64,000 nt of DNA from an uncultured Heliobacteriaceae bacterium (GTDB lineage Bacteria > Acidobacteriota > Blastocatellia > RBC074), in assembly GCA_964563495.1 (NCBI GenBank), contig CAZLYK010000006.1:5900-69899 (forward strand). Direction: 5' to 3'. The notes beneath the pieces were generated by a model, which had not been told where the DNA came from, searched no databases, and saw only the letters and a program-made list of their open reading frames with translations. Position 1 is the stretch's first letter. Every line of letters begins with the position of its first letter. Below, piece after piece: positions 42,521 to 53,944 of the stretch. Position numbers and translations under genes: made by a program.

Positions 42521-42883
42521 GTGACTAAAGTCATGATCGTGGATGACGTTGAAGGCGTCCGCCGGATGCTCATCTACGCACTCGAAGATGATTACACCAT
42601 TACCCAGGCCTCGAATGGCCTGGAGGCGGTGACGCTCGCCGAGACCGAGCGGCCGGACGTGATCGTCATGGACCTGGACATGCCGGTCATGGATGGAGTC
42701 GAGGCCACCCGCCGGATCAAGTCGGATCCAGAGCTCTCCCACATCAAAGTGCTCGCCGTTTCGGGTCAGAACAACAGCGAGAAATCGCGGCTGGTCAAAG
42801 ACAATGCCGACGCCTTCATCGAAAAACCCTTCCTGATCACCGACCTGGTCGAGGCCGTCAGACGCCTGGCGATAGAAAAATAG
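42521..42883 (+). CDS. Single-domain CheY-like response regulator (receiver only); TAG stop taken from repeat E11
   Basis: MIVDD...D(57-like)...K receiver signature (VIVMDLDMPVMDG). 120 aa. Confidence 0.75.
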   Translation: MTKVMIVDDVEGVRRMLIYALEDDYTITQASNGLEAVTLAETERPDVIVMDLDMPVMDGVEATRRIKSDPELSHIKVLAVSGQNNSEKSRLVKDNADAFIEKPFLITDLVEAVRRLAIEK

Positions 42884-42981
42884 ACAGGATTAACAGGATT
42901 TCACCGGATTAAACAGGATCTACCTGGCCGGTTTGGCTGATCCTGTTTAATCCGGTGAAATCCTGTTAATCCTGTCTATTT
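42878..42981. repeat. Full palindromic element E11
   Basis: AAATAGACAGGATTAACAGGATTTCACCGGATTAAACAGGATC ... GATCCTGTTTAATCCGGTGAAATCCTGTTAATCCTGTCTATTT. Lies between the stop of the response regulator and the stop of the convergent cytochrome gene. Confidence 0.85.
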
Positions 42982-42982
42982 C

Positions 42983-50054: not shown

Positions 50055-50061
50055 ACAGACA

Positions 50062-53000
50062 AATGAATAGCATCAAGCGTATCAAGATCGTCTTACTCCT
50101 ATGCCTCGGATTGGCCATGGCGGCGGGCCTGCTGACGGGGTCTTCGCCGGCGGCCGGGCAGGCCCCGCAGAAGAAGGGCCAGGTCAATCCGCGCAGCGCC
50201 GGCTGCGTAGTTTGCCACACCGGCTCGGAATCGATGCATTCGGATGGCGATGACGAGCTGGAAATCGGTTGCGCCGATTGTCACGGCGGAGATCCGAACG
50301 AGACCAAGGACAAGAAGAAAGCCCACGTCCAGCCGCGTTTTCCCGAGCTCTGGAAATCGACGGCCAACCCCGAACGATTGAATGCGCTCTGGCTCAAGGA
50401 GAGCGATGAGTATGTGCGTTTCATCAACCCGGGCGATTTTCGCGCAGCCGATCTGGCGTGCGGCAAATGCCACCAGCGCGAGGTGATCTGGTCGAAGAAG
50501 AGCATGATGACCCACGGCGGAATGCTCTGGGGCGCGGCCCTTTACAACAATGGGGCTTTCCCATACAAAGACGCGCATTTCGGCGAGAGCTACGGCAAGG
50601 ACGGCGCGATCCAGGCGATCATGACCAATCCCGCGCCGACGCTCGAAGAGACGCTCAAACAGGGGATACTCCCATTTCTCATGCCTTTGCCGCGGTGGGA
50701 GATAACCCAACCAGGCAACGTGCTGCGCGTCTTCGAGCGGGGCGGCGAATTGAAAGGACTGCCTTCCGATATCGGCAGCCCGAATGTCCTGGAGCTCCCC
50801 GGCAAGCCCGAGGTCAAGCTCAGCGATCGCGGCTTTGGCACTCGCCTGCGGACAGACCCGGTCTTTTTGGGATTGCAGAAGACGCGACTGCTTGACCCGC
50901 TGCTCTCGCTGCCGGGAACCAATGATCATCCCGGCGATTATCGCATGTCGGGCTGCACGGCGTGTCACGTGGTCTACGCCAACGACCGCGACCCGAAACA
51001 TTCCGGCCCTTACGCGAAATTCGGCAATCGCGGCTTCACCGATTCGGCCGACCCGACGATCAAAAAGTTTGAGTCCGGCCATCCGATCAAGCACCAGATG
51101 ACCAACGGCATCCCCTCCAGCCAGTGCATGGTCTGCCATCTTCATCCGGGCGGGAATATGCTGACCGGCTATTACGGCATGACCTGGTGGGACAATGAAA
51201 CCGACGGTCAGTTGATGTACCCGGAAAAACAGCCGAAGCTGAGCGACGAAGAGAAAGACGCGATTCAGTTCCGCAACCCGGAAGGTTCGGCTTTGCGTGG
51301 GAAATGGGGGCAGGACTGGAATTTTCTGGTCAACATCTGGAGCGATATCAATCCGCAGGCGACGCGCACCCAGTTCGGCGATTTCCACGGTCACGGCTGG
51401 GTCTTCCGCAATGTCTATCGGAGTGATCGCAAGGGCAATCTGTTGACGGCGCGCGGAACCAAGATCAAACCGGACGACCCGGAAAAGTTCAAGAAAGCCG
51501 TCCATCTCGAGGATATCCATCAGAAGCTGGGGATGCACTGCGCCGATTGTCACGTCGGGACAGATGTCCACGGCAACGGCAATCTCTACAACGAGCCGCG
51601 AGCGGCGATCCAGATCGACTGCGTCGATTGTCACGGGACGATCGACAAGCCCGCGACTCTCGCCGCGTCGGGGCCGGCAGCCGGGACGGCGAGGTTTAAA
51701 GGTCAGGTCGTGACCATCTCGAATGATCTGACCAAGGTCAAAGCTCGCGACGAGCGCGGCCGCAAAGTCCCGATGTTCCAGCGAGCCTCGGCTGATCGGC
51801 CGATCAAAAAGAAGGCGGCCGACGGAAAAGAGGTCGAGTTCAAGAACGGCGAGATCATCCAGAATTCGCTGGTCGAGCCGGGCAAGTGGTGGCGCGTGGT
51901 GCAGACCGTCGACACGGTGACTCCCGGCAAGCGCGATTACAACGACGCGTCGGCCTGGGCCAAGACCGTCCAGCGCGACGGCAAGACATGGGGTGAGCCG
52001 GGCGTCGCCGAATCGAAGCTCGCCCACGCCAACAGCAACATGACCTGTTATTCCTGCCACACTTCGTGGACGACCAGTTGTTTCGGCTGCCATCTCCCGA
52101 TGACGGCGAACAAGCAAAAACCGATGCTCCATAATGAAGGGCAGGACAACCTGCGCAACTACACGCAATACAACTTCCAGACTCTGCGCGATGATATCTT
52201 CATGCTCGGCAAGGACGGGACAGTGACCGGTCATCGCATCGCGCCGACGCGCTCGACCTGCGCGATCCTGGTCAGTTCACAGAATCAGAACCGCGAGTGG
52301 ATATACTCGCAGCAGCAGACGGTCTCATCCGATGGACTGAGCGGGCACGCTTTCAGCACCTTTGTCCCGCACACCGTCAGCGCTTCCGAAACCAAGATCT
52401 GCTCGGATTGCCACATCACCAAAGCCAACGACAACAACGCGATCATGGCGCAGCTGCTCATGCAGGGGACGAACTTCGTCAACTTCATCGGGCGTTACGC
52501 CTGGGTCGCCTCGGGCAAGCACGGCATTCACGCCGTGGTCGTGACCGAACGCGACGAGCCGCAGGCCGTGATCGGATCCAGCCTCCACCGGCTCGCTTAT
52601 CCCGAGGAGTACAACGAGCACGCGCGGCGCGGCGATCTTCTCAAAGAAGCATATGAACACCGTCCGAACGGCGAAGCGCTGAGCATCCAGGTTCGCGGCG
52701 AATACGCATACGTCGCCAACGGCCCGGGCGGCCTGCGCGTTTACGATATCGCGAATATCGACAATAAAGGCTTCAGCGAACGGATCACGACGGCCCCGGT
52801 CTCGCCCCTCGGCCAGCGGTTTTATGTCGACACCAAATATGCGACGGCAGTCGCCTCGCCCTCGACCCTCGCGGTCGATCCGACGCGACGGCGCCGGCCG
52901 GAAAACCAGGAGGCCGAATACCGCGACGACAAGAAAGGGATCCACCCCCTTTACGCTTATCTCTACGTGACCGATAAATACGAAGGGCTGATCCTGGTCA

Positions 53001-53944
53001 ACGCCGCGACGCTGCTCGACGGCAACCCTTCGAACAATTTCCTCAAGCGGGCGCTGACCTGGAACCCGAACGGAGTCTTGAACGGCGCGACCAATATCAC
53101 GATCGCGGGAACCAACGCCCTGATCACGACTGAGCGTGGAACCGTCGTCGTCCTCAACCTCGACGATCCACTCAAGCCCCGAGTCACGGCGGAACTGAAC
53201 AATTTCAGAAATCCCCGTGCGGTGGCGGTGCAGTTCCGTTATGCTTTTGTCGTCGACGAAGAGGGGTTGAAAGTGATCGACATGACTTTGCCGGATAAGC
53301 CGCGGCTGGTCGAGACCGCGACTGTTCCGATCACCCAGGCTCACAATCTGTATCTCGCCCGGACCTACGCCTATCTCGCCGCGGGCAGCAACGGGCTGGT
53401 CATCGTCGATATCGAAAAGCCCGAGAAACCGAAGCTCGACCAGACCTACAACGCCGAGGGCAAGATCAACGACGCCCACGATGTCAAGGTCGGGATGACG
53501 AACAACTCGCTCTTTGCCTATCTCGCCGACGGTAAGAATGGATTGCACGTGGTGCAATTGATGTCGCCCGATGAGAATCCGAACATCTACGGTTTCTCAC
53601 CCCGCCCGACGCCGAAACTGATCGCGACTTTCCCGCTCAAGGGTGAGGCTCTGGCATTGTCGAAAGGGATCGACCGCGACCGCGCGGTCGATGAATCAGG
53701 CAACCAGCTCTCGGTCTTCAACCGGCGCGGCGCCCGGCCGTTCAATCTCGAAGAGATGCAGCGGCTCTACCTGCGCGACGGGCAGCTTTACACGGTCAGC
53801 GATGACCCGCCGCCGCGACCCAAAAAACCGGCTTCGGCCAGGGTCTCCGCGGGCGCCGCTTCGTTGAAGCTCTCGGAGATCGCCAACGCCGTCTGGTTCC
53901 GCTCGCTGATCGGCTTTTTATTGAGTGGCGGACCGGGCATTTAA
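50062..53944 (+). CDS. Decaheme c-type cytochrome fused to a C-terminal LVIVD-repeat beta-propeller (1294 aa)
   Basis: Start [22 protein letters not shown] (paralogous to the MSIERIKIVL signal of 42983..43966). CVVCH, CADCH, CGKCH, CTACH, CMVCH, CADCH, CVDCH, CYSCH, CFGCH, CSDCH. At least six LVIVD-type blades ([43 protein letters not shown]). Confidence 0.8.

Follow-up and report, generated by a model that had tools for sequence, protein, structure and literature searches.

The locus described here lies in a contig of an uncultured bacterium of the Blastocatellia (Acidobacteriota), within a stretch of 64,000 nucleotides (positions 5,900 to 69,899 of CAZLYK010000006.1) that was analysed as a whole and is referred to as the window. 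Between positions 42521 and 53944, two divergent operons encode two nonaheme cytochromes, a secreted protein with DUF336 modules, a predicted outer-membrane β-barrel and a decaheme cytochrome fused to an LVIVD propeller, with a response regulator gene at one end (Table 1). An initial annotation of these letters had proposed an undescribed acidobacterial conduit for extracellular electron transfer. The six genes and 28 CXXCH motifs that it listed are recovered by open reading frame (ORF) listing and translation, the motifs being distributed as 9 + 9 + 10 over cytA, cytB and the decaheme gene. The spacers measure 26 nucleotides (nt) between cytA and cytB and 3 nt between cytB and the gene of the 802-amino-acid (aa) protein; the barrel and decaheme genes are near-adjacent as annotated, at 8 rather than 7 nt, and the decaheme product has 1293 rather than 1294 residues. 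In translation, every secreted protein of the cluster begins with a hydrophobic N-terminal signal sequence. As a working interpretation, favoured tentatively and at a little under even confidence, the cluster would encode an envelope redox module in which a periplasmic decaheme-propeller protein docks at a dedicated channel and exchanges electrons with a small diffusible substrate.

Table 1. Genes and repeats of the cluster in window coordinates, other sites of the dispersed repeat, and tetraheme-barrel fusion genes at related loci.
Feature	Position	Strand	Details
Receiver-only (CheY-like) response regulator	42521-42883	+	120 aa; Response_reg, 85 bits
Palindrome between the convergent response-regulator and cytA genes	42878-42981	.	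43-nt arms, 100% complementary
cytA, nonaheme cytochrome	42983-43966	-	327 aa; true start ATG 43966; 9 CXXCH
cytB, nonaheme cytochrome	43993-45210	-	405 aa; 9 CXXCH
Secreted protein with Soli_cterm and two DUF336/HbpS-like modules	45214-47622	-	802 aa; profile matches
Palindromic dispersed repeat in the divergent promoter region between the two operons	47757-47861	.	inverted repeat
Predicted outer-membrane 18-stranded β-barrel	48069-50054	+	661 aa; no heme motif; AlphaFold2 model
Decaheme c-type cytochrome fused to a seven-repeat LVIVD propeller	50063-53944	+	1293 aa; ATG 50063
Repeat-arm sites across the window	3947, 7216, 14628/14705, 17460/17521, 19794, 25233, 40889, 42882/42958, 47759/47837, 60162/60240
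Tetraheme-barrel fusion, L030 (Blastocatellia)	6659-8989		Cytochrom_CIII, 34-37 bits
Tetraheme-barrel fusion, L035 (Acidobacteriota)	5419-7725		Cytochrom_CIII, 34-37 bits
Tetraheme-barrel fusion, L062 (Terriglobia)	7797-9935		Cytochrom_CIII, 34-37 bits
Tetraheme-barrel fusion, L063 (Bryobacteraceae)	1754-3871		Cytochrom_CIII, 34-37 bits

The 661-aa protein had been put forward as an outer-membrane barrel candidate, with a soluble or non-barrel fold as the result that would speak against it. An AlphaFold2 model built from a 52-sequence alignment (predicted template modelling score 0.72) instead returns 18 strands at residues 148-661, most with a predicted local distance difference test (pLDDT) value above 85. 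A signal peptide (aa 1-24) and a disordered linker lead to a highly conserved segment (aa ~89-150) and the barrel proper, and residues 17-145 come out disordered in the model. Its C-terminus reads ...KFVY, a typical barrel-assembly signal. The identification as an outer-membrane barrel is thus supported. By structure comparison, the fold type is that of an 18-stranded channel like AlgE, OprD, MOMP or chitoporin. With AlgE and the OprD/Occ porins it shares the 18-stranded monomeric barrel; however, identity to these is only 9-13% with no sequence-family match, and the long conserved periplasmic N-terminal segment and the obligate cytochrome neighbor set it further apart. No Pfam or NCBIfam model matched the protein in the window scan, and a Pfam scan of 52 family members down to E<=5 returned neither PF11854 MtrB_PioB, Alginate_exp, the OprD family nor any other model. 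A profile search of PDB sequences with the barrel likewise gave nothing at E<=1. Standard barrel geometry places the backbone diameter at an estimated ~33 Å, and there would therefore be too little room inside for a heme domain; the 661 residues themselves contain no CXXCH.

The segment ahead of the barrel (aa 89-150, nt 48333-48518) is the best-conserved part of the protein, yet it is modelled with pLDDT below 50. Invariant within it are DRWR, P125, D127, R129, Q141-N142, K145 and D147-Y148-P149. Such a combination of conservation and poor modelling fits a segment that may fold only against a partner.

Turning to the decaheme protein, a signal peptide (nt 50063-50164) precedes a heme domain (~50165-52432) and a propeller (~52460-53677), which is followed by a proline-rich linker and a shortened C-terminal hydrophobic tail at 53780-53941. 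All 10 CXXCH motifs sit at residues 48-780, before the propeller, and the median for the family is 9. At 1.25 hemes per 100 residues the protein is heme-sparse compared with cytA and cytB (2.4-3.0). The C-terminal part scores 66.6 bits against LVIVD (curated cut-off 20.2). Where the initial annotation counted six or more blades, a propeller is retained with seven LVIVD-like repeats, of which a pattern recognizes six and the seventh is degenerate. AlphaFold2, with an alignment of 42 sequences, models the propeller at pLDDT 80-93, and Foldseek matches the model to generic 7-8-bladed propellers with cd1 nitrite reductase among them. A decaheme-propeller order is also known from hydrazine synthase beta-gamma-like proteins, in which c554-type hemes and a seven-bladed propeller are followed by a C-terminal diheme peroxidase-like domain (PMC12758564). 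This identity was rejected since all ten hemes here precede the propeller and none follows it, and no such chain appeared in the PDB profile search.

The distribution of the two genes was examined with a decaheme profile in a scan of GTDB species, each represented by a single genome, which confirmed at least 596 genomes encoding a relative; the best 80 of these were compared as loci (labelled L001 and so on). Upstream flank longer than 2.5 kb was available for 69 loci. In these the barrel gene stands immediately upstream of the decaheme gene on the same strand in 63 by strict ORF calls and in 67 when tblastn is added, and both exceptions are planctomycete loci. The proposed profiling across relatives thus finds the genes adjacent nearly throughout, in loci from Acidobacteriota, Methylomirabilota, Planctomycetota and Fervidibacter. 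The best 80 carriers include Blastocatellia, Pyrinomonadaceae, Terriglobia, Bryobacteraceae, Acidoferrales and Thermoanaerobaculia among the Acidobacteriota. They also include Methylomirabilota, Isosphaerales, Pirellulales, Gemmataceae and Fervidibacter, so that the label of an acidobacterial system proves too narrow. Between classes and phyla, identity is 43-54% for the barrel and 51-60% over ~1,200 residues for the decaheme-propeller, a level unusually high for a surface cytochrome, and the pair is far more tightly conserved than known surface cytochromes.

On the barrel side, a profile search of 1.84 billion representatives put the family at ~1,770 clusters at 50% identity (1769 at E<=1e-3). 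Both proteins have thousands of relatives, which their sources name only "hypothetical protein" or, generically, for example "multiheme c-type cytochrome", and a protein search seeded with a Bryobacteraceae homologue found only metagenome-derived "hypothetical" proteins, to which look-ups of clusters contributed no further names. Even a distant barrel with a HEAT-repeat N-terminus is followed by a decaheme-propeller gene, whose product is 49% identical to that in the window. In an abundant peat lineage of Bryobacteraceae, the barrel-decaheme pair stands alone among housekeeping genes and without an HbpS-like gene; the pair is therefore the minimal functional unit. Judged from gene order, the barrel and decaheme-propeller genes constitute an obligate and widespread pair.

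Four of the compared loci encode a barrel fused to a tetraheme cytochrome (Table 1; Cytochrom_CIII cut-off 22.9 bits), and the same class III fusion occurs in three of the 150 best barrel cluster representatives. In these proteins a signal peptide, a four-heme class III domain and a proline-rich linker precede the DRWRxGxPEDPR...NPYxQNxLKGDYP segment and the barrel. Pyrinomonadaceae loci encode free homologues of the fused tetraheme, 170-210 aa in length; cytA is weakly similar to them (E 1e-6), the resemblance lying in its N-terminal part. The fusions are the strongest evidence that the barrel works with cytochromes, and they back the general direction of the initial annotation. Elsewhere in the family the N-terminus of the barrel protein carries CarboxypepD_reg, AMIN and SH3, fn3 or HEAT modules, which puts this end in the periplasm, AMIN and SH3 being domains that face the peptidoglycan.

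The location of the decaheme-propeller bears directly on how the pair might operate. The initial annotation placed it at the cell surface. A Sec-type signal peptide is present, there is no lipobox, and a C-terminal helix in some lineages points to the periplasm instead. A lipobox-like site is seen in just 5 of 225 full-length homologues, the Rokubacteria protein included. In most Blastocatellia and some Pyrinomonadaceae homologues the C-terminal tail consists of a proline-rich linker, ~20 hydrophobic residues and an arginine/lysine cluster. This hydrophobic helix with its basic tail is found at 14 of the 80 loci and is absent from the homologues of Terriglobia, Acidoferrales, Rokubacteria and Planctomycetota. 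A PEP-CTERM-type signal was considered for the helix and rejected, since the homologue alignment has no conserved sorting motif ahead of it; cleavage is still possible. In diderm bacteria an alpha-helical anchor sits in the inner membrane only. If uncleaved, the helix would therefore make the decaheme-propeller a periplasmic protein tethered to the inner membrane in those lineages, and by orthology the protein would be periplasmic also in lineages that lack the tail.

In the window itself the tail is shorter than in close homologues and ends in ...FLLSGGPGI, without an arginine/lysine tail (53880-53960). The stop codon (53942-53944) passes directly into 13 nt left over from a dispersed repeat (AAATAGACAGGAT), and the ATG of the next gene follows at 53955. 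A past repeat-associated rearrangement may have taken out both the anchor and the intergenic spacer.

The two nonaheme cytochromes belong to a more familiar type. Cytochrome_C7 (PF14522, cut-off 24.8 bits) scores 57.3 bits for cytA and 48.8 bits for cytB; both are secreted and made of c7/c3-type triheme units, three in cytB. The motif F(T/S)HK(S/T)H had been singled out as distinctive and as present twice in each protein. The count is correct, with two FTHKSH in cytA and FTHKSH and FSHKTH in cytB, which adds a third, degenerate YSHGEH. As a distinguishing mark the motif does not stand, for it is a generic c7/c3 hallmark, the ordinary signature that supplies distal histidines; PpcA carries FPHKAH. 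In their chains of triheme units with F-x-H-x-x-H, cytA and cytB resemble PpcA and the poly-c7 "nanowire" cytochromes of the GSU1996 type. They differ from these in having nine hemes rather than three or twelve, and TIGR04257 reaches only 25 bits against a cut-off of 40.

The 802-aa protein combines Soli_cterm Ig-like sequence (aa 45-263; TIGR03437, 127 bits) with two DUF336/HbpS-like modules at ~aa 275-500 and 560-800 (PF03928, 67.8 bits in three stretches, cut-off 25). The two halves are 26% identical to each other, an internal duplication. Together with the adjoining response regulator, this protein raises the prospect of a non-respiratory role in envelope sensing or acquisition, such as heme or iron uptake or redox-stress sensing. 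The HbpS-like protein and the response regulator would then act as in HbpS-SenS-SenR of Streptomyces and the cytochromes would serve as assimilation reductases. An HbpS-like protein does occur at 41 of 79 loci and the carriers are apparently mostly soil heterotroph lineages. Nevertheless such a role is very unlikely. The receiver gene adjoins the cluster but is syntenic only in the close Blastocatellales relatives L007, L011 and L013 (76-79% identity) and absent elsewhere, and the 64-kb window has no sensor kinase near the cluster. The HbpS-like gene is missing from the minimal conserved unit, and 28 hemes would be a large investment for sensing or assimilation. The ligands of DUF336 proteins are also varied, as illustrated by the PDB relatives of the two modules, namely the PduO C-terminal domain, EfgA and NahX.

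Accessory genes were counted by clustering the ORFs of 79 loci into families and recording those within 10 kb of the decaheme gene. Aside from the DUF336/HbpS-like protein, the most frequent are a multiheme protein with an FHA domain and a single transmembrane (TM) helix (29 of 79) and a protein with cyclic-nucleotide-binding and 4Fe-4S domains (25). Nonahemes of the c7 type like cytA and cytB follow (15), then a cytochrome c554-like tetraheme (12), a pyridine-nucleotide disulfide oxidoreductase (12) and a NuoF-like subunit (9). Many genomes that encode the pair also have periplasmic multihemes of the c7 type and a DUF336 protein close to it. Of the families counted, the cluster in the window holds only the DUF336 protein and the two nonahemes.

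In many genomes the pair is found near a NuoF-like subunit, a NuoG-like or 4Fe-4S protein with cyclic-nucleotide-binding domains, and the FHA-TM-multiheme protein, which is laid out as a cytoplasmic FHA domain, one TM helix and a periplasmic multiheme domain. Examples from other phyla or classes are L004 1-2932, L045, L058, L084 and L003 3778-7818. These genes, none of which is present in the window, may form the inner-membrane or cytoplasmic entry point of the pathway. Eight loci (for example L001 4619-5467 and L017 3556-4347, Pyrinomonadaceae) have a secreted protein of ~260-280 aa between the DUF336 and nonaheme genes that is not found in the window; it gives weak prealbumin-like or SpaA matches only and has no clear family.

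The cluster is flanked by unrelated housekeeping genes on both sides and is therefore bounded, in line with the initial annotation. To the left lie genes for an EamA transporter, DUF4230 and a DNA methylase, and to the right those for Opp-type ATP-binding cassette (ABC) ATPases, Yip1 and a GMC oxidoreductase.

Repeat elements had been described as bounding and bisecting the cluster. Those at 42878-42981 and 47757-47861 are real; however, they belong to a family found throughout the window, and the one at 53943 is only a 13-nt remnant. The 20-nt repeat arm, AGACAGGATTAACAGGATTT, occurs in 15 copies at 10 intergenic sites of the window where none is expected, and at five sites inverted pairs of arms lie ~60-80 nt apart from start to start. 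Its core, ATAGACAGGATG, is also present just upstream of the cytA start codon (43966-44000) and at the start of the ABC ATPase gene (53944-53957). An Rfam scan of 40-56 kb, repeats included, gave no match. In sequence it looks like a repetitive extragenic palindromic (REP) element or a miniature inverted-repeat transposable element (MITE), dispersed across the window rather than marking the cluster. A role as borders of a mobile island was rejected, since the arm recurs across the whole window and composition is flat. The palindrome at 42878-42981 could serve as a bidirectional terminator.

With the parts described, the pair can be compared with established systems. As in MtrCAB of Shewanella, MtoAB and PioAB, a barrel gene stands beside a ten-heme gene, further periplasmic multihemes are encoded and electron exchange across the envelope is presumed. 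A conduit of the Mtr or Pcc kind would place a multiheme domain, either a c3/c7-type unit or part of the decaheme protein, inside the barrel. The decaheme-propeller would then act at the surface as a terminal reductase or oxidase for insoluble iron or manganese minerals, humic matter or electrodes. Such an arrangement would agree with the order of barrel and large decaheme genes, with the heme-dense periplasmic cytochromes alongside and with the tetraheme-barrel fusions in relatives. It would also agree with a sub-threshold similarity to MtrC/MtrF domain II/IV (PF22113, 23.3 bits, cut-off 30) and with family descriptions in which LVIVD and choice-of-anchor B regions (here 33 bits, cut-off 100) are common in surface proteins. 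Expressed porin-cytochrome clusters have, in addition, been described from other Acidobacteriota (preprint 10.64898/2026.05.27.727921).

Component by component, however, the resemblance weakens, and a conduit of this kind is unlikely here. The barrel has 18 strands where MtrB has 26, neither its sequence nor its best fold matches MtrB, and its estimated backbone is much narrower than the one that sheathes MtrA. In place of a heme rod of 300-350 aa like MtrA, DmsE or PioA, the partner is a heme-sparse propeller fusion of 1293 residues, and there was no MtrB_PioB, MtrA/DmsE (NCBIfam) or MtrC family match above threshold. With MtrC, OmcA and MtrF the decaheme-propeller shares ten CXXCH but not the lipobox, and alpha-helical C-terminal anchors occur in some lineages. 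Low heme density combined with very slow sequence divergence is also unlike characterized surface cytochromes. The Pcc and Ext clusters of Geobacter (OmbB-OmaB-OmcB, ExtABCD, ExtHIJKL) similarly place a porin gene among multihemes, and a partial ExtM match exists; in contrast to them, the cluster has no equivalog-level match, no lipoprotein surface cytochrome and no OmaB-type periplasmic octaheme, while its propeller fusion and DUF336 partner have no counterpart there. The interpretation given in the initial annotation is thus partly supported: the pairing, the fusions and the accessory multihemes speak for it, and the small barrel, the heme-sparse partner and the missing lipobox speak against an Mtr-type sheath with a surface cytochrome. 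Its remark that the component families differ is borne out by the Pfam and NCBIfam searches. One further acidobacterial porin, propeller and multiheme module proposed for extracellular electron transfer is the EET1 "porin-NHL-cytochrome c" cluster of peat Terriglobales, which has an MtrB-like porin by Foldseek, a separate NHL/DUF5128 propeller and a separate heme-dense cytochrome (bioRxiv 10.64898/2026.05.27.727921). Identity with EET1 was rejected, since an AlgE-like barrel and an LVIVD propeller fused to the cytochrome are found here.

A second alternative regards the decaheme-propeller as a multiheme enzyme in the periplasm, akin to NrfA, octaheme nitrite reductase or tetrathionate reductase and responsible for one specific conversion of a soluble nitrogen, sulfur or other oxyanion, and the barrel as no more than the porin specific for this substrate; it amounts to a catalytic variant of the docked periplasmic module. 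In the PDB profile search, two short heme-pair segments are shared with the Thioalkalivibrio octaheme nitrite reductase (E 9e-5) and NrfB, and the best NCBIfam match is a partial one to ExtM of a selenite/tellurite operon (79 bits, cut-off 800). Enzyme-like conservation, low heme density and the existence of propeller-cytochrome c fusions in enzymes such as cd1 nitrite reductase are consistent with this possibility. It is nonetheless improbable on other features of the protein. There is no CXXCK or other atypical heme motif in its sequence. Outside the heme motifs, 13 histidines are invariant in the alignment and 4 nearly so, a number sufficient to give each of the ten hemes bis-histidine ligation. 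Among the invariant residues of the propeller many are acidic or basic but only one is a histidine, and there is no histidine/cysteine cluster for a metal cofactor. No nitrogen- or sulfur-cycle genes are found among the neighbors of the cluster, and small oxyanions rarely need a dedicated 18-stranded channel.

A closer analogy for the mode of action may be Cyc2 of iron oxidizers. Cyc2 has one heme and a 16-stranded barrel. As in Cyc2, a cytochrome is associated with the periplasmic N-terminus of a small barrel, by actual fusion in the four relatives named above, and the likeness fits redox chemistry on soluble species that enter a narrow pore. In contrast to Cyc2, the barrel in the window has no heme, the fused relatives have four, and a large decaheme-propeller is always encoded beside the barrel. 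The data fit an envelope redox module, whose probable way of working may fairly be called "porin-cytochrome-like". By family membership it falls outside Mtr, Pio, Pcc and Cyc2.

The absence of a lipoprotein anchor, the lineage-specific inner-membrane tether, the low heme density and the enzyme-like conservation are the reasons for preferring a decaheme-propeller that is periplasmic and docked at its channel. The core would be two genes, encoding an AlgE/OprD-like 18-stranded outer-membrane channel and then a Sec-exported decaheme protein with a seven-bladed LVIVD propeller. The latter would remain periplasmic. In many Blastocatellia its C-terminal helix and long proline-rich linker would hold it to the inner membrane, and it would dock, probably by way of the propeller, to the conserved segment that precedes the barrel on the periplasmic side. 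The c7-type proteins cytA and cytB could ferry electrons between inner-membrane redox enzymes and the decaheme. Exchange with the environment would take place at the channel or within it, and the small diffusible substrate could be, for example, an oxyanion, a quinone-like organic compound, or a metal in ionic or chelated form. The logic would be like that of Cyc2 rather than that of MtrAB, in which a wide barrel encloses a heme wire. The secreted protein with two DUF336 modules would be an accessory, possibly a carrier of tetrapyrroles or other small ligands. The barrel fold with its number of strands, the gene pairing, the fusions, the heme counts and the features of signal and anchor are shown by the analysis, whereas we infer how the parts dock, where in the cell they work, which way electrons flow and what the substrate is.

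Several observations weigh against this scheme. The heme domain is modelled at pLDDT ~25-60 over most of residues 1-780, with no catalytic heme or heme chain visible, and the sufficiency of conserved histidines, as read from the alignment, would favor plain electron transfer over catalysis. The C-terminal helix may be a cleaved sorting signal rather than a tether, LVIVD and choice-of-anchor B regions are typical of surface proteins, and secretion is possible for most homologues, which carry no anchor at all. Neighboring genes in the window also hint at no substrate.

A search of the literature found no description of a multiheme-LVIVD fusion, of the barrel family or of the barrel-decaheme pair, and the system can still be called undescribed in this sense. 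Acidobacteriota are among the most abundant soil bacteria and their extracellular redox handling is largely unknown, while at least 596 species-level genomes encode the module, which is unannotated in major soil phyla. Electron transfer between the cell and something outside it is the probable role of the pair. A more far-reaching possibility, and a somewhat doubtful one, is that it represents a class of electron-transfer complex of the envelope that has gone unrecognized although very widespread among dominant soil phyla (Acidobacteriota, Planctomycetota and Methylomirabilota), bridging an inner-membrane tether to a narrow channel and to extracellular metals or organic matter, and distinct from both Mtr/Pcc and Cyc2. 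The tetraheme-barrel fusions and the lineage-specific membrane tether offer concrete experimental handles. If the module does exchange electrons with metals, humics or another external substrate, it would constitute a third way of coupling a barrel to cytochromes and a common, unannotated route to be included in models of iron, manganese and carbon redox cycling in soil.

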